Translations under genes and position numbers: made by a program
Notes under the pieces: generated by a model
Databases searched by the model: none
What the model was told of the DNA's origin: nothing
The model's input: the letters and a program-made list of their open reading frames with translations, nothing else
Assembly: GCA_964187785.1 (NCBI GenBank)
Contig: OZ076409.1
Location: 59,768,001 to 59,832,000 of the forward strand
Source of the DNA: Amphiscolops sp. MND2022
Lineage: Eukaryota
DNA length: 64,000 nucleotides
Reading direction: 5' to 3'
Part shown: in pieces, positions 1 to 40,848 of the stretch
Layout: each line of letters opens with the position of its first letter
How positions within the stretch are numbered: the first letter of the stretch is position 1

Positions 1-2865
1 AATGTGCTCAATATGTCGATGATATCGGCATTGCTGCAAATGACGCCGAACAACTCATAAAGAACCTGCGGGCCACTTTCCAATGCATCCGCGAAGCGGG
101 ATTGAAGCTCACAATGCACAAATGTCATTTCGGAGCGACAGAAATCGACTTTTTGGGTCGAACGATCACGCCAGTCGGAGTACGTCCACAGCGACCACGA
201 GTCCAAAATTTCCTAGAAAACACGAAATTCCCGAAATCAAAGAAAGCACTGCAGAGATACCTGGGATTTCTCAACTACTATCGTAACTATATTCCCAGGC
301 TATCAGAAAGACTAACACCATTCTTCAAATTATTAAAGAATGATGAAAAAGTCCTAGTAACACCGGACCTATTGGAGAAATTTACCGATATCAACAAAGC
401 ACTTGACCGCTGTTGTGAATTAGCACTTAAACAGCCGCTACCGAACAAGCAAATAGCCCTAATGACCGACGCCAGCTTTATGGCCGCTGGGTACGCAGTC
501 CTAATTGAGGATGATCCACAAGAAAAATATACTTCAACGAGGAAGGCGTTTGCTCCGGTAGCTTACGGGTCAAAGACCTTTAGTCCCGCACAATTGAAAA
601 TGTCCATTTATGCAAAAGAATTCTTAGCCATATTCTTTGCGTTCAAGGAATTTGGACACATCTTTCGACGCCAAAGCCGGTAATTATACTGACCGATAAC
701 AAATCCGTCACGCGTTTTTTTCAAACAAAGATAATACCACCAACGTTGTGGAACGCATGTGATTACGTTATTCAATTTAACTTCACAATAGCACACATTC
801 CCGGTAAAAACAACACAGCCGCAGACTACTTATCACGCCTAGAAATATCACCAAAGAGAAATTGATTCTTCGCATCAGAGAAGATATTCCCACTACGCCA
901 ATTGAACTTCACGTCCAATCAGCAGGGATCACAGAAGAAGAACAAATCTTCTATACTGACGATGAAGATGAGACAGAAGAGCAAATCTGGCAAAGGAAGA
1001 AAAAATCACGAGACAATCCTTCCAATCAATTACCGGATATTTCTTTTCAAAAATTTACCACTCATCACAGCAATTATCAAAAATTACCCATTTGTCAAAA
1101 ACTAGCCAATACCAACACTGTGACTATAGAGCAAAACAATGACGTTATACTACAACAACTTAAGCTCAAAATTCAAAAAGAAGAGTATTCTGAAACAATC
1201 TTGATACAAGATACAAGATATCAGCACTACCTACGCCAACTAGACCGACTGTCCATTCAAAACGAAATCATCACGAGGCAGTATTACGACGAAACTGGCA
1301 CTGTCAAATACAACCAAGTGCTCTTACCAAAACACCTAGTAACTGAATTATTAGAATCCCTTCACGGGAAGGCCAATCGCCATCCGGGCATTGCAAAAAT
1401 GTTACAAGAAATTCGTTCCAAATATTATTATCCTGGAATAGCGAAAATCGTCCGCAAATGGGTTAATGGATGTGAAACCTGCATAAAAGATAAAAGAACT
1501 CCAAATGAGTTAATAACTCCTGAGCTCCTCAATTTGCCAGAGTGGACTTTGGGTCCAGAAGACGCTATGCAAATAGACCTATTACCGAACCTCCCGCCGA
1601 GCGGAGGCTACGAAAATATTATTACTGCCATGGACGTTTTTTCACGTTACCTGTTCGCTTACCCAGTTACTGATGCTTCAGCTGCAAATACCGCTAAGGT
1701 CATTATCGACATCATGACCAAACATACGTATTTGCCGACGACTTTGATTACCGATAAAGGATCAGCCTTCACATCAAAGTTAGTAGCTGAAATTGCGCAA
1801 ATTTTGGGCATTCAAATTAAATGTGCGACGACGAAACACCCACAGACCATAGGAAAGCTAGAAAGAACTCATGCCAGTCTTAAGACTAACCTCAAAATGG
1901 CCTCAGGGGAGTATAGACGTCAGTGGCACAAGTACTTACCGTTAGCAGTCCTAAATTACAACACGTCCTACCACTCGACGTTGGGCTGCGAACCATCAAA
2001 GATATTTCATGGCCGCATACCGTACAATATTTTAGACCATAAATTGGGGCTCAACCCAAACCCACAGGTCCTTCCCACCACGGACTTTGCTGAGGAATTC
2101 CAACGTAGATCACAGGTTTTGATTGATTCCACAAAGAAAAATATTATGCAGTCTTATTTGAAGTACAAAGAATACTATGACCGAAAGGCCAAAGCAGCAC
2201 CTTTGAAACTCAATGATTATTGCTTCATTCTACAACCTATAGCTGACCATCAAGGATCAAAAATCCCATTCCGCGAATTCCGTTGGATTGGCCCTTACAT
2301 TATCGAAAAAGTTTTACCAAACGATAATTATATAGTTCGCAAACTCAATTCCAACAAAACGCAAATTTTACACAGAATACGTCTCAGAAAATATGAGCCT
2401 AATACAGACTTACAGGACGTTCGCCCAGAAGGGAATTTACAGCCAGACGATGAAATTGTCATTCCCCAAGATGATCTCTACGTAATCACGTGGGAAACGA
2501 ACTTTGAGGACTTCGCGTCCACTCGACGTCAACCGACCTACGAGCAATCAACTGAACGACCAGAAATTACGAGCGGCGAAGATACTAACTTCGACCAGCC
2601 AGATCAGATCTTGACCGATGTGGACCTACAGTCCACTAGACATGACGAGACGGAAGAAACTCTTCCTGAGCGAATCATGCCCGATTCCGATGATGACTCA
2701 ATTCCTGGTGAGGAAACTTCATCAGGGGGGAGCGATACTATCGTGCCCGAAGTATCAGAAAGCGAAAACGACGAAATGATTGTAGAAAATGAAAGCCCTA
2801 GAGGAGGGAGATATAACCTCCGTCCGAACCCTACCCCTAATTACTCAGAAGAATACAGATACTAG
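1..2865 (+). pseudogene. pol: pol of element 1 (RT C-half, RNase H, integrase), frameshifted near 667 and 858
   Basis: QYVDDIGIAA at the window start; RNase H MTDASF..GYAVL; integrase H..HPG..C..C zinc motif, QIDLL / TDKG / GKLERTH DDE residues, WIGPY (GPY/F) motif. Split over ORFs 102-683 and 862-2865. Confidence 0.95.
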
Positions 2866-3087
2866 TCAGAACATTTAATTACTACGTCCCAATTTTCTCT
2901 CTCTGCCCTTGAGGACATGTATTCTTTACTTGGGACTATTTTGACTTCACTTTATGACAATTAATAAGGTGCCGACAAACTGACTTAGCGACGAATAATA
3001 AAGCCACAAGCAACATTGGCAGAACAAAAGAAAATATGGATAAATAGTTTACAATCTAAAGTTTATATATGTGCACATTGTGTACAA

Positions 3088-6000
3088 TTAGTCTTTACTG
3101 CCACACTGACGCAGACTCTTAGCAGTCTGGACCAATTCGGAATCTGACAAGAGATGAGTAGGACGGACATTCTTCTTAGGGTACTGTAGGGTACTGGGGG
3201 ACTGCTGGACTGTGACAGTACTGGAAGCGCCCACCTTGCCAGCTTTGCTCTGAAGTCTGCGTTCAGGATCCAACTTCGACAAAATCTCAGTCCTCCCGAA
3301 ATTGTCCAAACCCGACCACGGGTCATACGTGTCGCCAAGCGCAGTGCGACCGAAAGTAGACTCCATTTCGAGGAATTCGGAGATCGAGGCATCGCTGGTC
3401 ACTGACTCAACTGGATTAACAGCTTGGCTAAAGAACGATTGCACTGGCAGCACTATGTCCACTAGCTTGCTGGTAGGATCATCCGTGTTGACAGAGCCGA
3501 ACTTGACTGTCGGGAGATCTCTAAAAGGCTCATCTATGCAGAGACAAGCCAACTTGAAACAACTAAACAACAATGGACGTGTAGACAGAGTTGTTTGGCC
3601 CATGAGGAAATCAATTGTATCCTTGATCAATAGTGTAGGTTGATCGAACTCTGCAAATTTAACGCGCAACTCGTCGACGAAGGACAGGTACTCTTCATGT
3701 GCTGGGGCCTCTTGTTCTTGGGAAAAATACCCACGAAGACGGAAGACGGTAAATAACTGGCCGAAGCATTTCGTGGCCAGAGTGAGAGGCAACTTCAAGA
3801 GGATTTCCAGGTCAAAGCTGGCCAAACCTTGGGCGATGTTGGTGGTGAAATTGAAGTGACTACGCGTCTCTTTGAACAGATGAGTCACGTAACTCCTGGC
3901 CAAACGTCCAAATTCTTCCTTAGCCTTCTCTTTCAATGTGTCGATTGACGTCTTCTCTCCTTTCTGTTCATGCTGCTCAATCTCTGCTTTCAACTTGCAG
4001 GCATGGTCAAGTTTCGCTCCAAATTTGGTTCTGCTGAGAAACACGGGGACGCTGAGGGCCAGAGCAGTTGTGGTATCCAGGTCCAAGATACTCGCGATGT
4101 CTTCTTCAGCAGGCAAAGCAGTGGGGAGAACAACGCGCTTAGCCAATTTGCGAAGGTAGAGACAAAGCTGTCGGAAGGAGTAGAAGGCCCTGTCTCGCCG
4201 GCCACTGAGACTGAGTGAGAAGTTGGTGGTGTCTGAAACAGTGAATCAACCATGAAACCAGATTATGCCTTAAAAGACCTATGGTCCCATTGTCGTAACT
4301 AGGACTAAGAGGATTTATTTTGGGACAGTCAAGCTTAGATTGGAAATTCGACAAGGCGCAGCCCAGTTCCAGTCAGATGCATCCTATTGAATTATTATGA
4401 AGCCATGTGGAAACCAAAGTGCAAGGAGAATTAGAGTACTAACAATCGCGGACAAGCTTCCCAAAGAACTCGAGTCTGCAAGGAAAGAAGTCATCGTGAA
4501 TGACAGATCGTTCGAAGTTTTGGGGCTGAAAAGAAATGAAAGCCATCGAGATTTGCCCTACTAGGGACTATGAGTCTAGCTGTCGCAAATTGACCAACCT
4601 GGTTTCTGACTCCCTGCATTTGCTGTTGAGGTGAATGCTCGGAAAGGTAGGTGATCACCGTTTTCCAGTTAGCCATCAACTCCTGACACAATTTTGGGAT
4701 TGTGGACACGTCAAGCTTGCAAGTTTTAATGGCCTAAACAGAAAACCCCACGTCAAACCGGACCAAGCTTCGGGCGGTACTAGGCACGTAGACTGAGGGA
4801 CTTACCTTAGTCAACTCAGGGGTGAAGAGAGTCCATTCCATCTCTAGACTTCCACTCAGGCAGACAACCAAGTACTGTAACACTGAAAAGAAGTCAATGC
4901 GTCCAAACACGGAGAAACTGTCTTTGTGCATCAACTTCTTGATCGCAATCTCGTCGAAAGTGGTTGGTCGCTGTACCCCATGTCTGGTGAGTGGGGACCG
5001 ATCTAACAGATGGACTAGGCCATATGTAGCCCCAGAGCAGCACACTAGATCAGCCTCAGCAGATATCGCTGCAAGAAGGGTAGACACAAGGCTGACTTCG
5101 GCTGATGTTTGTCCACTGGCCCTGCCGGTTCGCAGTAAGTAGACCCGGCACAATTTGTCAGCTTTCCAGAACCTGACGTGAAGCAAGAGGAAAACCCCCT
5201 GTGGTTCGAATTCTACAGAGAATTGTCCGGACGTCAGGATATCATTGCCAATGATTGGAATGATTTGTGTGAATAGATGATGGAACAACACCTTAAACAC
5301 ATCCTTAGATTAGTACGAACCGGAACATGTGCCCACTCAAGAACTATTGTTCAAATCATGGACTGTGACTTATCAAATCTAGTCAAGCTTGCATGATATA
5401 GGGATAGGACTAGAAGTCAATCAGACGTGAAGAGACTACTTACTGAGAGTCTAGTTGTGCTCCAGTCGATATCACTGGTGATGGCCTGATGATTCAGTGC
5501 AATGCCAATTTGTTGCCAGAGATCACGCAGGACTTGGACGTCTCCAGACAATGGTAAGAAACAGCCGAGCACAGAAATTTGCAGTCTGGCACGATTTTGC
5601 GGTGACGATGCCATATAATCCACGCCTGCCATTGCCTCGTCGTAGAATGGCAACTTCTCCCCAATGTCTACTAGTTCGCAGTTAATGAAGTGAGGCAGTT
5701 CCAGCTGGAGTTGATAATTGGAGAGCACTTTACCATCTTGACCTCTCACTTGGTATCTGCGTCGCTTAGTAAGGGGGTCTTCAATAGTGAGGTACTCATA
5801 CCTCCAGCGCTGATCTTTACGCAGATGACGCTCCGTCGCGAAATGTCGCAGGATTTCCTTTGGACCCTTTGCACGGATTGAGACATTGCACTTGCAGATC
5901 TGGCAGTAGATCTTGTGCTTGTTCCATTTCGGATCAACTGGCCCAGACACGAAAGTTCTAGTCCAAGGCATTGTCTCGAAGTACTCCTCCTTCATCACTC

Positions 6001-7438
6001 GGCCTATTCGTCTCCTGGGTCGTGCTTGGCCCCTAGGTCGAGTGCGAGATGAAGTTTGTCTCCGGGCTTGGCGTTGCTCGTTAATAGCCTCCTGTCTCAC
6101 GTTGGCGAGGGTTTGAGCCCCAGGGCTGGACACGGCAGGAGAATGTGGGTCAGTCTCTAAGTCTACCTGTTGATTGCTGGCAGTGGTCGGAGGAGCAGGC
6201 ATCGCTACACTTGATTGGAAGTCCGGTTGGGATTCAGCCTCACTGGTCATGCCTGAACTTGCGCCGCCTCTACGTGTGGAGTAGGTAGCTACGGAATCAC
6301 TTCCGATATCTGTGTCAGTATCATGGCCAGACATCGAAGGAACACGCCTTCTAGAAGCAGTTTTTGCAGGACTACCCAAGTTCAATCGGCTCGCCCGTTC
6401 CACTACGCTGCTAAGCATCTCAAAAGACGCTCGGGCACTTTCGTCTGCTACAATTCTGAGGATGCTGGTAATTTGATCCTGATTTAGCGCAATGACAGGG
6501 TGTCCTGGATCAAGGCAGATAGGGTTTGTTTCTGTGAAACATTGTTTGATGATAACCCTGCTGGTACCTGACAACGGTGGCGGATCAGTGATGGGTGGCA
6601 AATCGGCAACGTTTGAATCATGACTAGATTCATCGCGGCAAGAAATCTCACGAACCTTTGCCGGGCAATACAGCGCTTGTCCCAAGGTAGACCTAGCCAT
6701 AGATCCGGTGTCGGTCTCCATCTCAAAGCAAGAGTCTTCATCTGTTTGGTACCGGTAGTCCATTGGCCCTTTGCTGACTTGCGGATCACCAGACCCAGAA
6801 GCATCGATCTCTTGTCTCCCTTCCTGTGCTCCTTGAAGGTTGGGAGTAACTTGCGGCTCCTCAAGGACTTGTTCCACTAGCCCTATGTTAGCAGGCTGAG
6901 ACGGGCCCTCAGTGGTAGTAGCAACAACCCCGACTTCAGGATTAGATGCCATCAGGCTTTGGTCAACTACTTTGCTTGCTGACGTAAGGTCCTGTCTTCC
7001 GATGGTGGTGTTATTCGTCCCTTCTTGCGAATCGGATTTGTCCAGGAAGACGACTCTAGGGACGCTTTCTGTAAGTTGGACTTCGGGGATCATCTCATTC
7101 AGCGCAGGAGTAACAGCAACCAACTCACTCACACTTGACTTTGCCTCAACAGGAATCTCAGTTGCACGACTAGCGGGATCTTGCTCAGCGCTCTCAAGCA
7201 ACTCAGCTGTACGCCTGATGTAGGCTTCGCAGCTTTCAGTGTCCGTATTGGAAGACAGCTCAACTATAGATCTTATGTCCGTTGGCGACCCTCTGTTCTC
7301 AGACTCTAACATCTGTCCAACTGTTGGGGAGTCAATTTCCATCTGTTCGGTGACGTTTTGTTCTGGTTGGCCGTCCATTTCTTTGCCTAAACGGAAAGAA
7401 ATAAATTTTCGCGATCCACTTCCGTTAAAGAAATCCAT
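3088..7438 (-). CDS. Spliced antisense accessory gene of element 1, ~1,290 aa: low-complexity N-half, BED-like C2H2 finger, putative degenerate hAT-transposase core. Exons 7438-5444, 5291-4806, 4733-4444 (possible 31-nt intron 4598-4568), 4232-3088
   Basis: Zn finger IYCQICKCNVSI..G..EILRHF...RH. GT-AG introns 5443-5292, 4805-4734 and 4443-4233 join the ORF-track fragments in frame and match element 2 in position and phase. Confidence 0.8.
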
Positions 7439-8909
7439 CTTATCGCGTTTGAAAGACTTTCGAAAGCAAGCTTATTATTTGTTCATACCTATGGTTGAAT
7501 ATTTCACGATGGAGGAAGTGAAAACTAGTCAATGGGAAGCCCTGATCAAGCTCAAAATTGACAAAATAAGTTGAAAGAACCAACCTGATGTTTATCCAAA
7601 TGGAGAACAGAATTGGTGGAGCAAGACGTGGCTGACTGAAAGGATTCTTGGTCTGTCCGAATCGGAGTAGTGACGCGAAGGATGAGCAGACTGAAACAAA
7701 GTCGTAAGACGGCGGATACTGTTGGAAGGGTGACCTATGCCAATTAGACTGCTAGTCCAATTAGTAGAATCTCGAGGAATGAACAACGTTGGTCGGGAGT
7801 ACTGTCAACAAGTTGGAATACTCGTAGAAGAATAGTTCAATGTTGTCTAGGAGAAACAAGAAGGGTGAACTAGATGAAGAATTCTGAACCGAGATTGAAG
7901 TCTCAAAAGTGGACTCTACGTCGATCTAGGGACAATTAGACCAGTAGTCCTGGAAACGAAGTCCAACGAGAAGATGTAACTAGAAGAACTATCCAAGCAG
8001 GAAATATTTTGTGCAGATTTGGGGATCTAAAACTGCTGTTGAATGATAGAATTAGAATTGGGAATGCAAAATGTAACAAAGGATTAACAATTTGAAAGTC
8101 GTACTGTGAACTGTGAAAATTAGCAAACTGGTTTACTATGCTTTACGGCAATTAGACTGAAAGTCTCACTTACAAGTTTTACTTCTTACCGTTCAACTTG
8201 ACTCTCAAGACTGATTATTACTCAATCGTATTTTACGTTTATTTCATTTACATCAAAGGACGTCGTGGCAAAATACAAGTCATTTATTATTACCAAAGCT
8301 ATTAGCTCTTTTAATTACCTATACACTATGATCTTCAGTGTTACAGAACCTGCCAGTGATGTACATTCAGCAATCATTTCTTTTCCATTCCTTTGTTCCA
8401 GTATTAGAGTTACCATCATTACCATTATTAATTTCATCCATTTATGCCATTTTACCATTTTCATTCAAATTCATTCAGAATTATTTATTCATTTATCAAC
8501 ACGCTCTGATTGGACAGTTGGTCTTTGCTAGCCGCTGAGACCGACGGTCTTTGATGACACTTCACTAGTGTTAATGAGTGATGATAAACAATCTCATCAC
8601 CCATTGTCACCTCTTCAATAGTTAATACAACCACTTGAGATCAAACTCAAGCACTTATCAACTTTACAAGCGGCTGATCATCAAAACGAAATTGAGAAGG
8701 GAACCCGCTTAATAAGGAAATGTTAAGAAACCAAAGAGGGCTGCAGGGAAACTTTCCCTAACTTATTTTCCCGCGAATTTTCGACCCTCTGACCTAAGGT
8801 CAATCAGCCCGAGGTAGCCATTCTTCTGAATCTCAATCTACAAATCAGCAGCTCACTTTCATACTCAAGAATTGCTAAGAAAATCTTACTAAAGAGATTT
8901 CAAACAGAT

Positions 8910-9728
8910 ATGTCTCTACAATTTGCAGTAGAAGATTTAATTAGCCCCTTGGTTAGCCTGTCTTATCTATCCTCAGAGGAAGAAGACATGGACGTGGACG
9001 ATCCACAAAAAGCCCCAGACGAGAAAGGTTATGACAGCGACATAGAAGTGATCGCCTGTTACAGCGAGGCTCAGTCCACTCGACCATTGGGGATAGCGGG
9101 ACGTGCCATGACCACTGAATTCACGGACGATGATGACTTAACGCTACTGGAGGAATTGTATGGCAGGTCAATAAAGACGGACACAGAGCCCCCTAGCGAC
9201 CTTGTAGACCAGATATTGGGCATTCACCCTCCTAGCTATTCCAGAAGACTCAGTCAGGAGCGACCCATTGCTGAGTGTGCAAGAATTAGCCCAATTCCAG
9301 ACACCCCACTATCTCCACCTCCGCACGAGCAAGGGTGTAATGTCAATAACGCTGGCAACCCGTGGTCAGATGATGACTTCCCTTATCAGCCCAATAACGC
9401 ACATATTACTGGGATTGCCATAAGCAACAGCGGGGTGTGTGGGCTGCCGAACCAAGTCGCCTTTGGGGACTGCATAGTGTGTGGGAAGTCTTTTGAAACA
9501 ATACGAGAGGAGATCACCTTCAATTTTTTGGAGCAGACTCACCTCGTGGGTGAGACGTACAATACCCGACTCAGACGAAGAAACGCCTTTCAGGCAGGAA
9601 TGCTTGCAGGCTCGTTTACTGTCATCCCCCGGGGAGTGTCGCAGGCTGCCGCCTGTGATGGAAACAGCTACCAAGTGATGGTGGATGAGAACGACCTGAG
9701 ATATATGCCAGGAACACTGCCACTTTAG
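8910..9728 (+). CDS. Accessory ORF3 of element 1 (272 aa, acidic, one CxxC motif, unknown function); last 92 nt lie in the 3' LTR
   Basis: Uninterrupted ORF. Shares IAGRxMTTE, PxSPPxHExG, CxVCGKS and VSQAAACDG with the element 2 homolog. Confidence 0.8.
   Translation: MSLQFAVEDLISPLVSLSYLSSEEEDMDVDDPQKAPDEKGYDSDIEVIACYSEAQSTRPLGIAGRAMTTEFTDDDDLTLLEELYGRSIKTDTEPPSDLVDQILGIHPPSYSRRLSQERPIAECARISPIPDTPLSPPPHEQGCNVNNAGNPWSDDDFPYQPNNAHITGIAISNSGVCGLPNQVAFGDCIVCGKSFETIREEITFNFLEQTHLVGETYNTRLRRRNAFQAGMLAGSFTVIPRGVSQAAACDGNSYQVMVDENDLRYMPGTLPL
9631..9636 (+). promoter_or_regulatory. Short polypurine-tract candidate (GGGGAG) abutting the 3' LTR
   Basis: Purine run directly 5' of the LTR TG; much shorter than a typical PPT. 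Confidence 0.45.
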
Positions 9729-11383
9729 GCCGCGTATACCGCTGATCTGCTGGGAAACTTAGTGCATGACTTATATTTTTTTTCACAAACAATTAGAATG
9801 TGAATTTATGCTATTACGGACCGAAGGTCCACTGGTCTTAGTATGACTTGTAGTACCAATTGCATTTTAGTATTCATTACATAGATATAGCATTCATTGT
9901 ATTCTGTTTGTTGATTTTATACGCTGCGCATGTACACTTTATATATATATTCACGTCTTTATGCTTGTGTATTCTACATGTAAACCAGTAGTGCAGAATG
10001 TATTAATTATCGATGAAATGTAGCTGTAATAATCAAGATAACTGGCAAGGTAAAGGAAACGCGTTCGAATTGTCCGCCGCGTTGGTCAATTCGAACGCGT
10101 AGTCCGCAACCTTAATTAGCCAATCACATGCGAGCTTTCTTATTCACTTACTTGCTGGCCTTTGCGGCGACGCAAGTCATATTAGACTGCCGGTCCACTT
10201 ATTGTCGGTGTATTTACTTTGATGATTATTAATCTTAACTAAGTGCAATACTATTGGTGCATATAAGTATGAGCTCAGCACAAGTCTTGCTGTCATTAAT
10301 ATGAAAGGCGTACTGCCTCTTCCCCCCCATTTTCCTTCCTCTTTATCTATTTTTAGATCTAATACACGTAGAGATGCTAATTTTAGAATTACAGGAACAT
10401 GTGACGTAAACTTCCCAGGGCCTTTTGCCCGTACTTGTGTCTATATTTAGTTTGACAGCATTACGTCATAGTGACGTTAGTATGTAAGTTGCTAATTTTA
10501 GTAACATGACTATACATATTACTGCATGTCATGATGCAAGGACTATAAATACGGGGACCACTAGTCCCAAGGGATGAATCTTGACGATTAATGATGATTA
10601 CAAACCTACAACTCACCGCTATCTATCACCATCAGTGTTCTAATCATTTTGAGACTACAAGTCAACCTTCGCTTTAGTAGACTGCTTTAGTGATATATCG
10701 TTCTGTTATTGTTTGAATACTCAGTTCAAGTTGGGATATTTGATACAAGCTCGAATATACTCTTACCTGAGCAAATATTTCTTCAATGCCTTCTACTAGA
10801 AAGCAAAGAGCTAAGGAAAGACGCTCTAGGCAATTAGACATCATGTCTGATACAGAAAACTTAGACGTAATGCTTGGATCATATCCAAGAAATGAATTAG
10901 GAAATGACTCTGATAGGAATGGTGAAATAGACCTAGGGTCAGATGGGACTAGAGGAGACCCACTGCAAAATAGTGAGGATTTCAGGTCACTTTTAAACTC
11001 AAACAGTAACGAAAATAGTGAATCGACGGTTGAGACTATGAGGCTCGTTAATTCTGAGATTACAAAGAAAATTGATGAACTGAGAAGAGAACTTAATTCT
11101 CAGCTGGTTGATGTCATTAATTCAGCAATCACTGAAAAGGTTTTACCTGATATTAGAAACTTGGTTTCCAACCAAAATCCAGTGTTTCGGGAAGAAGTGG
11201 ACCAGAGGTCCAGTGGACTTAACAGGACCACCGAAGCGAAATTCGTTAAAAACGCTTGGAAAGGTAACTCAAAGCTTAATATGGCAACCAGTAGTCGACA
11301 AGACTACTTTAGGAGAAATTCAGAGAATTCTCAGTCTAGTGACGATGGTCATGAAGAAGACATTATGACCAATAGTCACGACA
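9637..11383 (+). repeat. 3' LTR of element 1 (1,747 bp)
   Basis: Perfect 5-bp inverted termini TGTCG...CGACA. First 22 nt identical to the element 2 LTR. Ends at the same gag codon position (His-Asp + 1 nt) as the element 2 LTR. Confidence 0.85.
10544..10551 (+). promoter_or_regulatory. TATA box candidate in element 1 LTR
   Basis: TATAAATA ~240 nt upstream of the gag ATG (10786); CCAATCA further upstream at ~10120. Confidence 0.5.
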
Positions 11384-11574
11384 GGGACGAATTGACGCTT
11401 GGGACGAATTGTCGCCTTTTGGAATTTGGGACGAATTGTCGCTTGGGACGAATTGTCGCTTGGGACGAATTGTCGCCCAACCACTTTTCCAAAGCCACCG
11501 AATCAACACCAAGCCCGAAAATGAAGACGAAGAATTCGGAGATTACGAAAATGAATTGGAAAACCCAGTTTTGA
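10786..11574 (+). CDS. Gag N-terminal segment encoded in the 3' LTR (199 codons), reading out 63 codons into flanking DNA
   Basis: MPSTRKQ...MSDTENLDVMLG is homologous to the element 2 gag start MPTTRKQ...LSDIENLDIMLG. Homology stops at the LTR end (11383). Confidence 0.7.
   Translation: MPSTRKQRAKERRSRQLDIMSDTENLDVMLGSYPRNELGNDSDRNGEIDLGSDGTRGDPLQNSEDFRSLLNSNSNENSESTVETMRLVNSEITKKIDELRRELNSQLVDVINSAITEKVLPDIRNLVSNQNPVFREEVDQRSSGLNRTTEAKFVKNAWKGNSKLNMATSSRQDYFRRNSENSQSSDDGHEEDIMTNSHDRDELTLGTNCRLLEFGTNCRLGRIVAWDELSPNHFSKATESTPSPKMKTKNSEITKMNWKTQF
11384..11478. repeat. Tandem array of a 17-bp unit GGGACGAATTGTCGCTT (5 copies, one 11-bp interruption) flanking element 1
   Basis: Units at 11384, 11401, 11428, 11445 and 11462 read directly. 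Confidence 0.9.
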
Positions 11575-11805: not shown

Positions 11806-14800
11806 TTTTCCGCCCAAATATCATATGGGAAAGGGAAATGTTTGAATCAAACGTTTTTTTTTTTACAAAATTTGCCAAGCACCAAATTTTAAATTAACTT
11901 TCAGGGTGTTACCCATAGAATTCAACTCAAATAAATTTAGCTTCGTGCGATTTGTATTTGTGAAAATTTTTTTAGTTGACCCCAAAGACCCCAGAATGAC
12001 CCAAAAAGGACCCAAAGAAGACCCCGAAAAGAGAATATTTGCAAAAATTTCAATTTGTTACGTTTCAATGCATTTTTGTCAATTTTTCGATAGATATCGT
12101 GAATCAGAATGTTGAAAAGTATCAACAAGACAAAAATTCGTTGTCCAGTAGTCCTTTATGAAGAGATAAATGCGCTTTTTGGGAAAGAAAAAGACCCAAA
12201 AATGACAAAAACCAAAAAGTCCCAATTTTTTAGGTTTTTTTTGCAATTTTTGTCAAATTTTTGCTGGACTTAGTGAATCAAACTGTTGAAAACGCTCCAT
12301 ATGGCACTAGTTCGTTGTCCAGTAGAATTTTTTTAGCAGATAATAGCTGTTTTTTATATGAAAAAACTTCAAATTGACACCGAAAATGACAAAAATCCCG
12401 AAAATGTCCAATTTTCAAAGGTTTTATGCGCTTTTCTTTCGTATTTTCGACGGATTCTGTGGATTGGACGTTGGAAAGGGCCATCAAGGAAAGAGTGTGT
12501 TGTCCAGTAGACCTTTCCGAAGAGATAATTGAGGTTTTTTAAGAGAAAATGTCTCAAATTCACACCGAAAATTACAAAAGACCCAAAAAATTCTGAATTT
12601 CAAAGTTTTTATGCATTTTTTGTTCACGTTTCGACAGACTTCGTGCTTTGAAATGTTTCAATGGGCCAACAAGCAAACGTTCGGTTGTACAGTAGTCTTT
12701 TATAATGCGATAATTGCAATGTTCTGATTGAAAATATAACGGCATGCGCTGAGCGATTGTATCGTGACATTGGAGTGGAGGAACTGGTACCATGGATAAG
12801 GTCCGGGACAAACCATCATGATATCAGCTCACTTTGTCCTCCTAAGAATAGCTGGTCCCGAGGAGGGGGAACCGTCTCTAGGGACGCTCTCTGTCCTGAT
12901 ACCAGTCTGTATCTGCTAAAACTCACGAAATTTCCGGAAGAGTTTATTGCATTTTCCTAATGAAAATGTCTCAAATTGACACCGAAAATGACAAAATTTC
13001 GGAAACTTCCAAGTTTCAACAATTTTATGCACTTTTTTCAATTTTTTGACAGACTTCGTCAATTGGAACACCGAAAAGGGCCAACAAAGAAAGAATGTGT
13101 TGCGCAGTATGCTTAGAAAAGAAATAAATGCAGTTTTTCAAACGAAAATTGTCCGGAATCGACATCGAAAAAGACAAAATTTCGAAAATTTTCCGATTTT
13201 CACTATTTTTGTTCAAATTTTGTAAAACTATCGATAGACTTCATAGACTAGAATGTTAAAACGTTAAAACGAGATAAGTCCCATTTGTAAAAGAAAATTG
13301 CCTCAAGTTGACCTGAATTGTCGAACAATTTGAAGTTCTGAGTTCTAAGTTCCAACACAATCAACTCAACAATGAACAAACGAGCTATGCAGTACATTTT
13401 TGAAGAGAACATTGCAGTGCCTTGCATCAAAATTACTTCAAAATGACTCCAAAGGCGTCGAAAAATTTCAGTATTTTCGTTTTTGTGCAACTTCTGTAAT
13501 TTTCGAATCGTTCTGGAGTCAGAATGTTGGCCAGCGTTCAACAATGACTGAACTCATAATCCATTAAGTTTGTAAAGGAATATTTGCAAACTTCAGTTGG
13601 AAAATGACTCGAAATTGACCGCAAAATGTTGAAAGTTTTGACAATTTCCGACATTTTCAGTGAATTTTTATTCGAGATTGAAAAATTTCGGTAAAAAAAG
13701 GTTCGAAAAGCTCAAGATGACAAAATTAGGTCCGAAAGCACGTTTTTTCAAAAAAAATGTTGCCTAATTTATGATCAAAAAGGTCCTCAGAATGATTCAA
13801 AAGTTGGGAAAACTGAGACTTTTCAAGTTATTTTTTTACATTTTTTGGCCGTTTTTTGGATAATTTTTCAGCTACTTCCTTGCAACAGATGGTTTGAAAA
13901 ACTCCACAATGACTAATACGGGTATCTCCAGTAAGCAAAATTGAAGAGATTACTGCAATTTTGTTGGCCTCAAAAACACCCACAAATCAATGAAACTAAA
14001 AAAAAAAACAAGTTGTTTGACAATTTAACCCCAATTTTTGTTCAAACTACGAAAGTTTTTGAAGAAGAAACTTTCAATGACCTGAGCGTTTAAACAACAA
14101 TGCATTCAAAACGCAATTGGGGGAAAAGTAGGATGGAATTCATCGCGTTCACAAGAAAAGTGTCAAAGTTTCCGAATTTTCTTCAACAATTTTCGACAAC
14201 AAAGTCCCAATTTTAGATTCTTTCCGAAAATTTACCTCAATTAGAACTATTATAGGCTCAGGATTGAAACGTGTAGCTACCGGTAGTGTTTCGAAAAGAT
14301 ATTAGACAAGTTCATTCACACAACTTTACTTAGAAACGTAAATTTCGACCTGATTTGTCCAACATGTAATATTCAAAAACCTCCTTGTAAAATCAATAGA
14401 TATGGAGTAAACCTTACAAACGAAACTGTTTCGAGCTATTTCGTGGGTTGAATGGTGTAAACATTCAAAAACAGCTAAACTCTGTGTCCAGTTGGCCTAA
14501 TTTTGACGACGCATCTATAGTTTCATGTTAAAAAATTTCCTCAAATTAACCTTAAGGTTGTCTAAACTATTTCCAATTTTTGACACTTCGGATGAAACTT
14601 TGTGCAGTATTATGTTGAACCGGTATCGCTCAATTTTTTTTTGCAAAGGAACAAGTTTCAAGCTTTTACCGTTTTCTCAGTGCCAAAAATTACATCAAGA
14701 CGTACGCCTGAGACTAGGAAACCACTTTTTGCCCAACAGGAATCACAAAAACTCCATTGTTTTTTGATTTTTTTCCAGTTAAGTTTCATGATGGCGAAAC

Positions 14801-16292: not shown

Positions 16293-16455
16293 CTTCAACT
16301 TTGAGTACAGCCGACGACTGGATTTCGCCCAATATGTTTTTGCCCAACACCTCGTATATTCCTTCATCCAGTGGCAATGCAGAATTGATAGACAAAGTCG
16401 CCTTTCCAGTCTCACTATCCAGGGTAGCAGTGATCGAGTGACTCATCTGGATGAT
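16293..16455 (-). CDS. Host gene exon: second half of an I-set Ig domain
   Basis: ATLSI...DEGIYEV...N..G...SSA.LKV Ig pattern; AG/GT boundaries; joins exon 34836-34959 in frame. Confidence 0.85.
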
Positions 16456-17095
16456 CTTGGAAATGAGAACAACAGAAATGGTAGTTAGTACTCAAAATTT
16501 TTCGAGTAAAATCTCCTAAAAGAGACGAACGCAAAACATTGATTCTATGGGTCAGCCTTCGTCAAAACCAGTCACTGGACTCGTAATGCAATGTCACTGC
16601 ACTTTGCTTTGCGTCTATAGTTGAGTTGGTAAGCGAGGCATTGTTTTGCTCAAAACGATTTTAAAATAGTGTAAGAAAAGAACTGTACATGTGAGAAATA
16701 GCTTGGACTGCATGTTGAAAAAAATCTAGCATTTTACATTGTATTTTCTTTCAATCTCCATTTTATACTCATAGAATTGATGAACTGGAATAACAAATTG
16801 AAAGTTTGGGACAATGAATAAAACAGCCCTAATTAACAGATTCACTTGATGTCAAGTTCCTCGAACAATTTTTAAACTCAAAAAAGTTCGAACTCTTTGC
16901 GAAGAAAAAGCTGAGTCCCATGTACCCACATGGCCCAGGAAAATTGAAAAACGTTTGTTCATTTGAATTTCGATTACCATGAATGATAGCAGAATTTAGA
17001 GCAATTTTGGCTTTGGTGTAATGTTTTACAGATTGAAGTTCAGTTCGTGTTTTATACTATTGTAGAACTCTGGCAAGACTAACTTAAAGAGTTTT

Positions 17096-18975
17096 TGTCA
17101 TGAACATTTAGGTCAGGAAAATCATTGTTTAACTGATTATCATTTTGTTCATTTCTCAAGTTGTTCTTTGCGTTTAGGTTTCGTTGAACTTCGGAATTTA
17201 GTTCCGGTCTCTCGGACAGAACGTCCCATCCCTTTCTGGTCCCGTGTCCCGATCCGGCCATAATAACATTTTGGATCTGAGGAAGCACCTGAGTGCTTAA
17301 TGCATCGCTTATGGCCCTTTGTATCTGGTCACTCACAGAATTCATCATCTCATCCATTTCTCGTGAAATGCGTGAATTTAATTCGCTTGACAACCTGTTT
17401 ATTTCAGCGCTAGAGTTGCCAGTAACTGAATTGCAATCACACTCGGTATTTGTCCTAGAGTTAATATTTCTCTGGGTTTCACCCATGTTCCCATCCTCAT
17501 TTTCGGACTCGTTGCTTGCAAAGCTCCTAGGTCTCCTGGGCAAATTACTATCAAACTGCCTTCCCTTTCTCTACTGTTAAAATGGTTTTCACCTAACATG
17601 ATATCTAAATTCTCGATATCAGATAACATTTCAAGTCCTCTTGACTTCCTTGCCTTTTTCTGTTTTCTAGTGGTTGGCATTGAAACAGTTCCGAATTAAA
17701 TAAAAAATTAAACAACTCGGAAAAACAACAGCGGAGCCGTTTGTAATTCAATCTTTACTAGTAGCGTCTCAAATGAATTGTGTCCCACTCAAGCCAAGTA
17801 TCAGTATATATACTCATGAGGGGATGACATTCACATACTTTACATACTTCTAGTTAAGATTAGTTTTTTGAGGAATGTAAGGTACAACGTTTCGAAAGAT
17901 ATTTAAGTTATCAAATACCTCCAGTTACATATTTTACATATCATTGAATAGCATCAGAGCGCATATTCCAACAAAATCCCAATTGGGTGAATTCCTAACA
18001 TAGACATGTATGTCATAACTGTAACATCAAACACTCAACATTTTGGTCGGCAAACATACCGGTACTTCAAACAACATACTCATGGAATTATTATTATTTC
18101 ATTGTCAACAAATATCATCACGTGTTGATGGAATGCGAAACACGCACCATTGGTCTGTCATACTGTCACGTGCCGCCATGCGGCTGTTAATCCGCACAGG
18201 GGGAGGCAAGATCGAATATTGCATGTTCAGTTATCACGCTATTGAAACAAAGTGTATTCTAGTAAGGCCGAAATTGGCCAAATCCAAGTTAATAGTATAG
18301 CATCAAAGGAAGAGGGGTAAAAGGCCTTATTCGGCTTTTGATTAATACTTGGTTTATTAAACCCACAAAGATTAACACTAGTGTTTTTTAGCACTGAGTA
18401 CACGTCCAGAGAGATTCCTGATTAACCTAATTAGCCATAAGTACAAATAATTCAGCGTTGATGTATTTCACCAAGACGGCCGGAACCGGCCGTTTGACCA
18501 AGGCATAGAATGAAGTGCATTTATTCAGTCAATTGGCCTTACTCGGCCATTAACAATTCAGAGTTGCATTGAATTTGTAAATTGGAGCGTTTTGATTGGC
18601 CAGGACAGCGAGCTCAAGTGACGCTTTTGGATTAGCACTGTGAATCACTTGAACTCGTTTCCTATACCACTTTACAGTTGCTTGTATTTACGTATCTTTC
18701 GATCTGATAATTCACATTCTAACTGCACTTCAATACATAGTAACCCGATCTGGATATTTCCAAATCGCATAATTTTAACAGACTATTATGTATACGTGTA
18801 TAAATGAGAAAACTTAACAACGTCAATAAATGCAACATATCCAAAACAACAAAGCAGTGTAAAAGTTTGTTTAGTTGTTCTTTTGACTAATAAATCGAAA
18901 GCGTGCCGGAAGCTGTCTCCTGTCCTTGCGTAGTCGTCGTGATCCTAGTGCCGTCACAGGCGGCAGCCTGCGACA
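17096..18975 (-). repeat. 3' LTR of element 2 (1,880 bp), containing a frameshifted copy of the gag 5' segment
   Basis: About 98% identical to 31371-33235 by eye (roughly 40 substitutions, one 17-bp and two 1-bp indels). Confidence 0.96.
17805..17812 (-). promoter_or_regulatory. TATA-like element in element 2 LTR (5' LTR copy at 32081-32088)
   Basis: TATATATA ~125 nt upstream of the gag ATG. Confidence 0.4.
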
Positions 18976-19653
18976 CTGCGGGTGCTAGGAAAAGTAAGCT
19001 GCCGGCGTTAAGACCATTTGAATAGGCTTCTCTTCGTAGCGCGGTGATATAAGCGGGCTCACTCTTGGGCGTAGATCTTGTCATATACCAGTTGATCTTC
19101 TCTTGTTTTATCTGATCAGTTGACTTACCGCAAACCATGCAACTGTGACATCTTTGTCGGCTTAGGTTCGCGTACGGTAACACATTTTGTAGATGGTAAG
19201 AGGCGTGGAAATTGTCACTTACTGTTTGCGGTATTAGAGTGTCCAGTGATGGTCCCTTTTCATGTTCTGGGGGAGACATAGGTGATTCTAGGACCGGTAG
19301 CACGGTACTACACAGTTCGATTCTTGTCTTCTGCTTCTTGGAGGGTCAAAGTATTTGAAGCCCAGTTTGGGGGTCAAGGGTGGAACCATTTGTGCGTTGC
19401 TAGGTCCCGCTTCCATCTCTTCATCTACTCCTTCAGTTGTCATTACTCGTCCCGCGATGAGTATCGGACTTGATTTAACTTCCCGTTCGATCCTATTGAT
19501 CAGTGCCTCCGTGTCCGTTGACCAGTCTGAATCCCAATCACTAGATACTTCGTCCTCGCTGTCACTGGAAATGTAAATAACTGAATCCGCTGATTCTTCA
19601 GAGCTTTGCTCTTCAAAATCAAAGAGCTTCTTCGACAGGTTAAATCTCTGCAT
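18887..19653 (-). pseudogene. Accessory ORF3 of element 2, one frameshift near 19305; last 89 nt lie in the 3' LTR
   Basis: ORFs 19288-19653 and 18887-19303 together are colinear with 8910-9728. Confidence 0.8.
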
Positions 19654-20715
19654 TATTAGTTTTTTCGCAATCTTGATAAGTGCAAGAGGTAGGTAACTGG
19701 TTTAGTCAAAACTTCGAAGTGGAATGAAACCCCTAATTTCTAGAACTCAGCCGAGTCAGGCTTTTTCCCGGCATCTCATTTTGGCGGTTGAAACTTCGGT
19801 AAAACATCCTAATCCGACATAAACATTCCTGAATGGAATTTCATAATTGGTCGGCAGTCTTTGATAGTTTGATGTTTACCCCCCATCAATATCATCACTA
19901 GAAGGGGTGTGAGTGACGCTCGAATTATTAATATCAACTACACCAGTCTCAAGTGGGTAATTAACGGGTCGCTTGAAGACAATTAACGGCACGCGTCACT
20001 GATACTTCTCAAAATGGCCTCAGCCAATCAGGGCCCAACTTCGATAAATTGATAAATGAATAACTAAAATGGCGAAAATAATAAACTTGAATAATCCAAA
20101 ATGGCGGAAATTCTAATTAAGGGTAACTAAGGCAACGGAACGAAATGGCAAATCAAGGTAGGGCAAACGGCCATAACCGTCCACTAACTAAGTAACCTGT
20201 AAAGAACGAAGATCTTCTGTACATTTCGCTGGAAGGCTCCATGTACAATTTTAAATATGTAAGTAATCATATAATATTAGTCTGATAATCTCTTCAGCCA
20301 CGAACTCCAACCTTCCAATTCCTTTATTCGCTTTTAATTCCAATTCAATTTTGGTTATTTTCCATTTGTCTCTCCATCCATATCATTTCAATTGACATCA
20401 GTCTATTTACGTCACCGTCTCTCTTGTCCCTAACAACTCTTCGTTTCGGAGAATCTGTGTCCTCCCTTCTACTTTCAGGATTGGCACAACTCCACGATTC
20501 CAACCAGCTAGTTCAAGACTCTTTACGTTGGGTTAACAGTACTGGAGAAACATGTCTTCAAATACAGGTTGGTCTGGTTTTCACATATTGAACTAGTTTA
20601 GCTTGATGAAGGCTAGATTTCGTTCAAACTGCGCTTCCTTTTTCCACTAATAGATTCGTGATAACACGTTTTGTTCAAATCTGAAACACTTCCGGAAGAT
20701 TTCTAACGCGGTAAT

Positions 20716-23700
20716 ATGGATTCTTTTCGAGGAAGCATACCGCCAAACTTTATCTCTTTTCGTTTAGAGAATCAAACAACCGAAGTTGTCAGCTCACCAG
20801 CCGACCTTCCTAACAATGTTCCAACAGTCAATCCCCCAACTGAGCAGGGTAGGCAAGTCCAAAACCCGGTCTCATCTCAAGAAACGCTTCGCAGTCGAGC
20901 AGATGACGTCACCTCCACACACAGTGCTGATAGTGACCCAGATGTTACTGCATACGCGGAAAACATGGTGCGCCAGCTAGAAGGAGCACAAGTGCTCGAC
21001 CGACCACAGGGAGGAGCAGGGCAAATACAGTCAACTCAGGATATTGTTCCTGGTACTCAAGTAGATCCTCCTGCCTCGCCTACTACAGGGACCAGGAGAG
21101 CAAGCACGCCGCTCTCAGCCAATGAGGGGGAAACCACAAATGCTGATCTGTCTGCTCTAGAGTCTGCTCGGTAGAGACGTCGGATTCGCAATTGGCTGAA
21201 CTAGTAGATGTTGACCTCCCAGGCAACAACACGAGTGGCAATTCACCTGTACAACAGGACACTGAAGTAGCATCCTCCGTTGGCGATGCCCCCCCTCTCC
21301 CTGGTGGAGTATTCAAGGTCCGATACCTGACTGACCCCAGTGGAGACGAAGGTGCAACAGATCAGTCCAGCGTGTTTGTTCCAGTAGCCCTATACGGTCG
21401 TCATCCCTTCTCTCACACCTCTGAAACTGAAGGGGGAGACGATACCGGATCTGAGCTTCTTGTTCCCGGCACCAGTGGGCAGACGCCCGGGCAAGGCACA
21501 ACCCAGAAAGAGCCTCCACACCTTTCCGGAAGAAGTCGAGCGATCCTCAAAGAGTATTTCGACGAATCACCCTCCACTCGATTTCCAGTAGGACAAACCA
21601 CCGTCACCTTCACTGAGCCGCAGGTGTACCACCTTCTTAGAGTCCTCGCTGATGAGACCCTCGGAAGGTCCTTTTCGACTATGGAACGCATGGTCATTGA
21701 TGCAGTCCGAGGTAAGCCAACCGTTGCTCCATCCAGAACTGCGCACGACTACTCAGGCAGGCGCGCTAAAACTCCAGGGCTCGGTGATGCAGGAGATTCT
21801 AGTGGAAGTGACACTGAAGGAGATGCTACGCTAAGGGGCAAAAACTCGGAGCCATCCAGTTCTGGAGAGACCGGCGATTCCTCGTGTTATGGGGAGACTG
21901 ACAGTGCTACCGAAATGGATTTAATAACCAAATCCTTCAAGAAGACTATTAGTGCCCAAGATGCTCCGGAGCCTCAGTCGTCGAGCCAGGACGTCCAAGG
22001 AGACATTGATACTGTCACGCCAGAGTACAGTAGCCAAGATGCTACACTGCTTGAGGTCAGAGATCAAGCCCTGGGTGCAACCACTGCCAGCTCGTCTAAG
22101 TCCAGGAACAAGAAAGGCGACAAAAACCTTTCTAAACGAGGCGTCCCCATGCGAGAGGAATTCTTTTCCAAATTCGGATGGACGAGATCCTTCATAACTG
22201 GCCCTGCTGACCCACTCCATAACCCTCATATGGTTTGGTGTCATATCTGCAAGAAAAATTTTTCAATCAAGTCTAAAGGTCCCTATGAGATACTCAGACA
22301 CCACCGGACGGAGCGCCATTTGCGGCGAAACCAGCGCTGGCGGTATGAACACTTGCGAAGTACTGACCCAATTACCGAGAAGACGCAGCACCGGGTCCGG
22401 GGCGGCAATGGGATTGCCCCAATTCAAGAACGTTGAGCTTGTGGACATAGGAGAACGATTCCCCTTTTACGAAGATTTTGTCAAGGGATCCACAACGGCC
22501 TTAGTCACTCCATTTTCCCGCATCAAGACCCAACTTTGCCTGGTCGGAGACTTCATCAAGACTCAAGGTGATATGATGGTCATACGCAATCTGTGGTCCC
22601 GGATGGGGTCATTCACCAATCACCAAGCCACCTTCAATGACTTTGATTGGGGGGAAGAGAGATATTCGGTTAGTACCATTTATTTTAGTTGTTTATGCCC
22701 GGATCTAGCTAAGGGTTTAAAGAGGGTTTTGTCTCTAGACAATCTTCCAGCACTTCTTCATCTGCTGCCTTGACGACATAGCAGAACAAGTCAACTCCCA
22801 ACAGTGCTTTGTCCTTGAGTTTGAAACAATTGGAGTCTACAAGCACATGTCTGTCAAGTTCTAGAAAGGCTCCTAGCTTTGTAGGGTGTTTATTTGCCGC
22901 AGCTCTCGAACCACTACTGTCGTGACCGGGGAGCTGGGGTCCCTTTCCCGGTTCCTTTCCGCCGTGTCCACCAAACCCGGAATAGTTGCCTGTTCCGGAT
23001 GCCACTCGGACCTACCCAGAGCCATCGACGAATCAGAGTATTACAACCAGGGAGTTCAAAGTTGCCTGCGTTTCGAGCACTTCTCGCTACCACGACTCAT
23101 GCACAAAACCAGCTACAGCGTCTTCGGGAAGATTGCTTTCTTCTCCGTCCTACAATCCCTGATGGTCTCCTTGGGCGAATCTCTTATGGAAGACTGGGTA
23201 ACTCGTAGCCCTGAACTCACTGAAGTAAGTAGTTTCATGGAATTTCCACTGGGGGAATAAGGTCTAGGTAGGGTCGTTTCATATGTCCAACGTGTTTATT
23301 TGGATCCGTTTGCTATTTCCAGGCTATAACCAGTTGTAAGCTCGATGTGACAACTCTACCCGTCCTCTGTCGAGAACGTATCGCTGAATGGAAGTCCGTG
23401 GTTCGGTACCTCACTACCCATGCACCTCTGCAAGAAGGATCAGGATCTAGAGGAAGGGTTAGATTTTCCCCATTTTCCACTTGAACCCATAGGAATTCAA
23501 GTCGGCCTTCTTCACTTGGCTGATCTAAGGTCCACTTTCAATTGCTGTATTGATGTTGGTCTGTTCCAGATGCAAAGCTTTGAATGGTCACTGATATGTG
23601 ACGAGTTCTTCACCGTCAAGCTGGAGTTCTTCAGTAAGATTGTCAGTGATTGTTAGGGTAGTTTGTTATAAAACCGGTGATGGTAAGTTGTCCTGAACTG

Positions 23701-24883: not shown

Positions 24884-25127
24884 TTTTGTACATATGTATT
24901 TATGTACTTACAAACTGTAATCTTTGTTTACTTTCTGTTTTGTTGTTTTATTTATTCTCGTTTTGCTTTCTTGATTCCCTGATCCCATATTTGTCTTCTT
25001 TGTAAGGGATCGCCTTTAAGTCCCATTATTTGTTCAGAAAATACTGTCTTCCATGGGACTGGAAAAAAAGATAAAAGAAAAGGAGAATCCGATTCAGGGC
25101 TTGTCTCCTGAACTGAATTCAGTCTTT

Positions 25128-31358: not shown

Positions 31359-31370
31359 CTCCTGTCACCA
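31359..31370 (-). promoter_or_regulatory. Primer-binding site TGGTGACAGGAG
   Basis: Starts with TGG immediately after the LTR terminal CA. Confidence 0.75.
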
Positions 31371-34835: not shown

Positions 34836-34959
34836 CTCGTTGTTGCGGAACCAGATGACAGTATCCGGTACTGGAAGAGAGAAAGTGCATTCCAAATTCA
34901 CGGGGGTGTTTGACAGCACATTGACGTCACACAGAGGTTGTACTATTTCAGGGGGGTAC
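34836..34959 (-). CDS. Host gene exon: first half of an I-set Ig domain
   Basis: YPPEIVQPLCDV.V....V.LEC...P.P..V.WF pattern; CCAG acceptor and GTTAG donor. Confidence 0.85.
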
Positions 34960-40551: not shown

Positions 40552-40848
40552 GAATAAGAATACAGCTGTAACGACCGACTGTTCAGCTCAACATTTGACT
40601 GGCGTGATTTCAAGACGTTCTTTGGTAAGCAAATTTGTTGAAAGAAGTCTTTTTTTTTTCAAATTTTTTAATAGGGAAAAACAAGAAACAAAATATAATC
40701 GAATAATTAGATAACTTCCCCTAACAACTCAAAGTAAAGATTATCTCATAGAGGTAGCAAAATTTATTCCATGAGCCATGCTTTTTAATTGTTGATTCAA
40801 AAAGGACAAAACCTACAGTTGCAAATTTCATTTCTTCCAATTTACAGA

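Follow-up and report, generated by a model that had tools for sequence, protein, structure and literature searches.

A U3-overlapping, non-envelope accessory gene of Ty3/Gypsy elements that encodes SUMO-interacting-motif-like sequences

ORF3 of a Ty3/Gypsy element in the window, the 64-kb stretch of DNA analysed here, is a genuine accessory gene of its lineage, and we hold with high confidence that its product is not an envelope (Env) protein. A first-pass annotation had proposed a non-Env intracellular accessory factor of unknown family, and this proposal is supported by strong conservation across copies and by searches that returned no Env or host match. The protein is predicted to have an acidic, disordered N-terminal half, in which short motifs lie, and a small, helical C-terminal domain that contains Cys and His residues. 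Its most conserved recognisable motif is a putative, phospho-regulated SUMO-interacting motif (SIM). We tentatively favour, at less than even confidence, a function of ORF3 as a SUMO-docking hub that de-represses the element over its being an activator, a tether, a self-repressor, a dispensable frame or a remnant of an env or host gene.

Two related Ty3/Gypsy elements in the window

The window contains two related Ty3/Gypsy elements, of which element 1 encodes the ORF3 under study:

from before base 1 to 11383, + strand: element 1, including ORF3 (8910-9728)
1 to about 850, + strand: RT/RNase H of element 1 (ORF list, Pfam)
808-2865, + strand: integrase end of element 1 pol (ORF list, Pfam)
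9637-11383, + strand: 3' LTR of element 1, 1747 bp, TGTCG...CGACA
17096-33235, - strand: element 2, complete, 16.1 kb, gag-PR-RT-RH-IN order
17096-18975 and 31371-33235, - strand: LTRs of element 2, differing at 37 of 1863 aligned sites (2.0%)

Pfam placed RT, RNase H and integrase in Gypsy order in element 2 and in the pol of element 1, and element 2 has TGTC...GACA ends, a 5-bp target duplication and a TGG-starting candidate primer-binding site after its 5' LTR. The host element has the PR-RT-RH-IN order and the TG...CA LTRs of Ty3/Gypsy elements (Metaviridae). An identity as Troyka, which has CG...CG termini and a 3-bp duplication as reported in PMC12440569, was rejected on the basis of the TG...CA termini and the 5-bp duplication. 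The integrases of the two elements are 70-79% identical, and their LTRs have little in common beyond the first 25 nt and the gag start. A 22-mer at the LTR start is present in exactly three copies in the window (9637 +, 18975 - and 33235 -; 0 of 100 shuffles). TATA-like boxes are located 908 nt (element 1, at 10544) and 1164 nt (element 2) into the LTRs. Frameshifts in element 2 affect gag-pol and the antisense gene described below, and not ORF3 alone.

The 5' part of gag lies inside the 3' LTR of element 1, starting from the ATG at 10786. In both elements the gag frame begins about 600 nt inside the LTR and reads through the primer-binding site (10786-11383 on the + strand; 31956-31371 and 17680-17096 on the - strand), and each LTR is therefore coding at both ends, for the C-terminus of ORF3 and the N-terminus of Gag. 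No purine run of at least 11 nt was found over the 650 nt next to the 3' LTR of element 1 or the 1484 nt next to that of element 2; the positions directly before it (9610-9636 + and 19002-18976 -) have no polypurine tract, and a conserved hairpin is present at the LTR start instead. The LTR of element 1 (9637-11383) has neither AATAAA nor ATTAAA, and that of element 2 has three AATAAA and one ATTAAA. Short tandem repeats with a GGGACGAATTGTCGC-like unit (11384-11476) directly follow the 3' LTR of element 1. About 290 aa between protease and RT of element 2 (28314-29195, - strand) had no Pfam match and could be a degenerate dUTPase-like or linker domain.

Elsewhere in the window, a dispersed repeat with 185-nt tandem subunits occurs at three or more places (12073-13600, 41016-43900 and 59093-60700) and is possibly a non-autonomous DNA or rolling-circle element. 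A 900-aa endonuclease-RT-like ORF (36740-39442, - strand) with an upstream 294-aa ORF (39703-40587, - strand) was assigned by eye to the CR1/L2 type of LINE. Frames of low complexity and exons that resemble immunoglobulin domains (54569-54967 on the - strand, 34700-34950, 16300-16480 and 61515-63023), also judged by eye, point to a large titin-like host gene whose introns would house the elements. A perfect palindrome with 84-nt arms (58334-58501) and a set of long inverted repeats (52395-53587) were also present, and ARAGORN detected no tRNA genes in the window.

ORF3 ends inside the LTR and encodes an acidic, soluble protein

The features of ORF3 and of its counterpart in element 2 are as follows:

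8871-8909, + strand: ORF3 leader, 13 codons, basic/hydrophobic, conserved at the amino acid level upstream of the ATG
8910-9728, + strand: ORF3 from its first ATG, 272 aa, acidic, mostly disordered
8955-8990, + strand: site A, aa 16-27; in the element 1 copy a Ser/acidic CK2-type tail with a degenerate core
9033-9053, + strand: site B, aa 42-48, DSDIEVI, acidic-first SIM-like, typical of clade B
9276-9320, + strand: C123 to the PxSPP block, aa 123-137, proline-directed phosphosite-like
9402-9608, + strand: H165, CxxCG knuckle (aa 188-192) and helix-loop-helix (aa 195-233)
9637-9658, + strand: LTR 5' end with an 8-bp hairpin (9639-9658), dual-coding for SQAAAC
9708-9728, + strand: C-terminal PGTLPL-stop motif, inside U3, conserved as protein
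18887-19671, - strand: ORF3 of element 2, with a frameshift near 19345-19288

The stop codons lie 92 nt inside the 3' LTR in element 1 and 89 nt inside it in element 2 (at 18887), as the first-pass annotation had stated and as the positions of the LTR-start 22-mer bear out. This overlap of 30 codons is assigned by inference to U3, because the TATA-like boxes are located much further into the LTRs. The element 2 copy is split over two frames (19701-19288 and 19345-18887) and has 28-32% identity to that of element 1. ORF3 starts 6 kb downstream of the pol stop, with an antisense gene of about 4.3 kb and 1.4 kb of intergenic DNA in between, and therefore needs an RNA of its own. The env position previously ascribed to it thus holds in so far as ORF3 lies between pol and the 3' LTR, but not in the sense of directly following pol, from which the antisense gene separates it.

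The predicted protein is acidic, with a pI of 4.26 and 26 D/E against 6 K/R in residues 1-110. Its description as Ser/Asp-rich is apt in a modest sense, as these are the commonest residues, yet at only 8.5% each. The highest 19-residue hydropathy is 1.05, in line with the annotated lack of a transmembrane stretch, and exceeds 1.6 in 2 of 110 relatives. By hydropathy alone, ORF3 has neither a hydrophobic signal-peptide h-region nor a C-terminal transmembrane anchor, and its sequence contains no N-glycosylation sequon.

ORF3 represents a large family under selection at the protein level

A single-protein search recovered 110 clusters at 90% identity with 1084 member sequences, which are 29-99% identical to ORF3. 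All are unnamed and without Pfam domains, their length is held near 272 aa, and 52 of the 110 appear intact as judged by length and end position. A 76-sequence profile extended the family to 635 representatives at 50% identity (E up to 0.001). Each of the best 150 of these has at most 316 aa, and no longer or fused forms (642-2000 aa) were found, which is weak evidence that ORF3 stands alone. The LTR-edge motif is present in 121 of 252 family proteins examined, and in 105 of the 121 the stop lies 17-24 aa further on. ORF3 belongs to a large, old, stand-alone family without a detectable relative.

Five conserved blocks quoted in the first-pass annotation were recovered in both elements (tblastn E 3e-16). 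In a codon comparison of hand-picked conserved blocks from the two window copies, 25 of the 45 shared residues outside the LTR edge differ in codon. Within U3, all three shared residues of the C-terminal motif have different codons; because these codons diverge and the LTRs are otherwise little alike, the frame within U3 is read as protein. These comparisons show ORF3 as a genuine selected gene with selection acting on the protein, also in U3.

Four of the five blocks thus stand as protein evidence; the exception is VSQAAAC. Here 7 of 7 codons are identical between the elements, compared with 20 of 45 in the other blocks (Fisher p 0.010, post hoc), and for the whole block that contains VSQAAAC the figure is 7 of 9 (p 0.14). 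The hairpin at the LTR 5' end is identical across all three LTR copies. Because the codons are identical and the DNA forms this LTR-end hairpin, conservation of VSQAAAC is counted as partly a cis constraint on DNA or RNA and not as clean evidence of protein function.

SIM-like motifs in the disordered N-terminal half

A SIM consists of a hydrophobic core with an acidic or S/T flank, and CK2 phosphorylation raises its affinity for SUMO (PMC8430037, PMC6735914). Judged by its sequence, ORF3 has this arrangement, a core with an acidic/Ser flank in a disordered region. SIM-like motifs are present in 70 of 82 full-length members, within the disordered half, as opposed to 1 match in a total of 1800 residues from seven acidic or disordered stretches elsewhere in the window. 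The acidic-first type occurs in 61 of the 82 (shuffled mean 7.7, maximum 16) and the core-first type of site A in 14 (shuffled mean 5.0, maximum 14), the latter no more than the best shuffle. Relatedness among the family members means that these shuffle tests overstate significance. SIM patterns are also short, and the regular expressions were written after the sequences had been viewed and were then tightened, which makes them post hoc.

A tree of the C-terminal half, built from 58 proteins and the two window copies (labelled by hand), resolved two clades (99/100). Site A is present in 15 of 16 rows of one clade (clade A, to which element 2 belongs), where it is SIM-like with a classic hydrophobic core plus SSDE in strictly kept spacing, and site B in 36 of 44 rows of the other (clade B). 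Under the strict patterns no protein has both sites and 9 of 58 have neither; with a looser pattern two clade A proteins match at a second site too. Such a split would be expected if one SIM had taken the place of another; as the switch happened only once, the pattern is suggestive but no proof.

Protein anatomy and searches for known folds

In the C-terminal part C123, H165, C188, C191 and C249 are conserved in both clades, and C177 in clade B only. C123 is kept in 13 of 15 clade A and 41 of 43 clade B proteins, and S135 of the phosphosite-like block in 14 of 15 and 42 of 43. The Cys/His set is a candidate zinc site. A RING domain has eight zinc ligands; with five conserved Cys/His residues, no RING spacing and no RING match in Pfam, a SUMO-targeted ubiquitin ligase of the RNF4/ICP0 type was rejected, and no ligase fold of another kind was detected. 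An LxCxE reading of IACYSE was also discarded, since the Glu is one position too far.

AlphaFold models had a mean pLDDT of 53 for the full length and 65 for aa 115-272 and were confident only around the helix-loop-helix at aa 195-233. The first-pass annotation had called for a profile search and structure prediction, and these returned no known family or significant fold. Pfam gave nothing above cut-off for ORF3, the 76-member alignment or 17 further proteins. Weak matches to PF04423 (Rad50 hook; 3 of 76 members, best E 0.0069) and to C2H2 (2 of 76) fall below cut-off and reflect the CxxCG knuckle; in a Rad50-type hook, a CxxC placed between helices forms a zinc-bridged dimer. Searches of PDB by sequence and profile returned nothing significant (best E 0.67 and 5.7), and the best fold hits, with Z of 4.7 and 5.2, were generic helical hairpins. 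Four of 16 PDB fold rows were small RNA polymerase chains, which we take from the chain letters to be RPB10-type and which are non-significant. Foldseek yielded no row below E 1.3 (BFVD) or E 3.5 (PDB), an E1A row in BFVD being non-significant (E 4.0, TM 0.13), and the ESM Atlas no usable match for aa 115-272. No Env family was detected in Pfam scans of the 76 and 17 members or in PDB sequence searches, and no sequence homology to Nef, Sag or Tas in Pfam or PDB; no row of the fold searches was significant either, with models that are of low confidence outside aa 195-233. ORF3 has few basic residues and no clear nuclear localisation signal, and no DNA-binding fold was found in its models.

Start of ORF3, candidate internal promoter and antisense gene

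Three further features lie upstream of ORF3 or in the corresponding part of element 2:

3088-7438, - strand: antisense gene of element 1, apparently three-exon, with a C2H2/BED-like finger, head-to-head with ORF3
8485-8499, no strand: 15-nt non-coding word common to element 2, followed by CCAAT-type CTGATTGG
20716-24883, + strand: antisense gene of element 2, the counterpart, apparently intron-containing, with a BED-like finger

Coding conservation of ORF3 begins at the ATT at 8871 and not at the ATG at 8910. The leader is also found in element 2 (ATT at 19671), and is clear in 8 and degenerate in 2 of 10 relatives with a frame open that far (16 rows, minus 4 too short and 2 pattern mis-hits). 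It bears only a loose resemblance to a SNAG motif. In both elements the ATT is flanked by A at -3 and G at +4, a context similar to that of the antisense gene's ATG. The leader start fits either a near-cognate start codon or a splice acceptor after a pyrimidine-rich stretch; the phase between AG and ATT is one base apart between the two copies. Bdelloid ORF3s have been described as typically spliced (PMC5408684).

The region upstream of ORF3, leader included, aligns better between the elements than 100 of 100 shuffles. The 15-nt word lies 386 and 392 nt upstream of the ATT in the two elements, and 1 of 500 shuffles reached 15 nt. Together with CCAAT-type CTGATTGG, this word is a candidate internal promoter or enhancer. 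Four and eight ATGs intervene between the word and the ATT in the two elements; transcription of ORF3 would therefore have to start near the ATT, unless its RNA is spliced. The third gene of Tor elements has an internal promoter (PMC4402516).

The antisense gene has three exon-like frames in both elements, with 30-41% identity between them. Its Cys2His2 finger region is near hAT-derived ZBED5/FAM200 proteins at 0.85-0.86 in Atlas features, which is a lead only. At least 52 clusters are related to the third exon, a family without a match in Pfam or PDB. For 10 of these 52, an ORF3 relative is found on a contig of exactly equal size, and ORF3 and the antisense gene therefore travel together.

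Possible functions of ORF3

The silencing-antagonist reading offered by the first-pass annotation gains motif-level support from the SIM-like sequences. Under the SUMO-docking reading, which we prefer with reservation, ORF3 would be expressed from a subgenomic RNA that probably starts at an internal promoter, which the divergent antisense gene would use too, and ends in the 3' LTR. The product would be a soluble, motif-rich hub of about 30 kDa, presumably nuclear, and E1A/ICP0-like in logic. It may dock on SUMOylated chromatin at the element and there outcompete SIM-bearing silencers (SetDB1/Windei, Daxx or Mi-2 type) or draw them away, whereby the LTR would be de-repressed; the C-terminal domain might bind a second partner or dimerise, and the co-carried BED-finger-like protein may give DNA specificity. 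SetDB1/Wde is recruited via SUMO-SIM contacts in piRNA-guided transposon silencing (10.1101/533091), and ICP0 and E1A subvert the SUMO system (PMC8430037). A bolder version is distinctly unlikely to hold in full: the two genes would form a counter-silencing cassette driven in both directions by one internal promoter, in which a hAT-derived BED-finger-like protein would recognise the DNA of the element, and ORF3, a SUMO-binding hub with a non-AUG start, would disarm the formation of SUMO-dependent heterochromatin.

A SIM gives no direction of effect, as repressors like Daxx carry the same motif. ORF3 could be a direct acidic trans-activator following foamy virus Tas or E1A CR3 logic, its N-terminus (26 D/E against 6 K/R in residues 1-110) recruiting co-activators, its SIM-like words being hydrophobic-acidic activation motifs, and the Cys/His domain or the antisense BED-like protein targeting the LTR and the internal promoter. 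Conserved N-terminal Phe and hydrophobic patches and the candidate internal promoter suit this idea, and foamy Tas is made from an internal promoter and activates the LTR (PMC8670036). We nevertheless consider it unlikely given the paucity of basic residues and of any DNA-binding fold in ORF3. The core-plus-SSDE spacing is moreover strict in clade A, and activation domains rarely preserve exact motifs. A late-step adaptor without a transcriptional role, which would anchor the integration complex or RNP at SUMOylated chromatin or nuclear pores or aid particle traffic, is rather improbable: a SIM with a second binding domain would suit a tether, and the basic leader and the free C-terminus, which is conserved, might serve in docking or targeting, but ORF3 is a separate gene with its own candidate promoter outside gag-pol, and nothing in the analysis ties it to integrase or Gag. 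Slimmer still is the chance that ORF3 recruits SUMO-linked or Groucho-type co-repressors and so restrains the expression or copy number of its own element. Co-repressors typically have SIMs (PMC6735914), and an eh1-like N-terminal motif occurs in 11 of 43 clade B proteins (FAVEDLI in ORF3). The same motif is missing from 15 of 15 clade A and 32 of 43 clade B proteins, and a family as large as 1084 member sequences gives no hint of strong self-limitation.

That the frame is kept mainly by a cis-acting DNA or RNA constraint at the LTR edge, the protein being dispensable, is very improbable; the VSQAAAC codons (7 of 7 identical, against 20 of 45 elsewhere) and the hairpin argue for it, as does a frameshifted ORF3 in an element that is young by its LTRs (2.0% apart). 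Against it stand the synonymous divergence in all other blocks, the conserved stop register and the conservation of Cys, His, Pro and Gly across two deep clades, and the gag-pol and antisense gene of element 2 are likewise frameshifted. A degenerate env or small fusogen, or a captured host gene of known function, would fit the location between pol and the 3' LTR and the several cysteines, but is largely refuted by hydropathy below transmembrane level, the lack of sequons and the lack of a family, structure or longer fused match in the searches above. A caution for the SUMO-docking reading comes from snakehead retrovirus, in which disruption of a 3' ORF that had been taken for a transactivator made little difference (PMC12193657).

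Third ORFs other than env are known in Gypsy elements, mostly without assigned function, and encoded anti-silencing factors are documented mainly in plant DNA transposons; the ORF3 motif points to one specific, cheaply testable host pathway. If ORF3 binds SUMO and relieves silencing, it would offer a handle on how animal retrotransposons counter piRNA/SetDB1-type repression. The internal promoter, antisense gene and U3-overlapping accessory gene would then represent convergence of a retrotransposon on complex-retrovirus organisation without an envelope. If the cassette version were true, the retrotransposon would encode an antagonist of the SUMO silencing step, something for which the literature searched offered no description.

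Comparison with known systems

Non-env extra ORFs in Gypsy elements have been described before (PMC5408684, PMC7264820, PMC11963269, PMC2774666). In the literature covered, mostly open papers, we found no description of the ORF3 family or of a retrotransposon-encoded SIM protein; repeat databases may already contain an annotation. ORF3 is a new protein family and part of an unusual two-gene accessory cassette within a known element class. Its closest organisational counterparts are additional ORFs of Ty3/Gypsy elements, namely bdelloid ORF3s (GDSL, DEDDy, TM, coiled-coil; PMC5408684) and plant sense or antisense aORFs such as Retand TRP28 (PMC11963269, PMC7264820). Like ORF3, these are conserved, lie in the interval between pol and the 3' LTR in sense and antisense orientation and are often non-env; they are usually separate transcription units with mostly unassigned function. 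ORF3 differs from them in that Pfam scans match it to none of their domains and that it lacks enzyme and TM motifs. It also runs into the LTR end, combines SIM-like motifs with a Cys/His domain, and lies head-to-head with an apparently spliced BED-like gene. The env of Oikopleura Tor3b/Tor4b is also the third gene of an animal Gypsy-like element, and its expression is driven by an internal promoter (PMC4402516), whereas that of ORF3 is a candidate only. Tor Env is a transmembrane glycoprotein (PMC4402516), in contrast to ORF3, which has no TM segment.

Among retroviruses, foamy Tas/Bet resembles ORF3 as a 3'-end accessory gene and has an internal promoter (PMC8670036), as is proposed for ORF3. 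Tas/Bet, nef and sag belong to Retroviridae and the present elements to Metaviridae, with no homology detected. HIV nef and MMTV sag are 3'-end accessory genes overlapping U3; sag encodes a membrane protein, and Nef is myristoylated. The parallel to nef and sag drawn in the first-pass annotation accordingly stands for the U3 overlap, here of 30 codons, as a likeness of topology only. E1A resembles ORF3 in size and has a zinc module, for which ORF3 has a candidate site. Together with ICP0 it works as a viral hub that engages the SUMO system by short motifs (PMC8430037), a likeness of proposed working and not of descent, as ORF3 has no homology to either, no RING, and one SIM-like site rather than several. 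VANC of VANDAL, which derives from MAIN-like host proteins in a plant DNA transposon (PMC13547354) and to which no sequence relation of ORF3 was found, provides the likeness of a transposon-encoded accessory anti-silencing factor.
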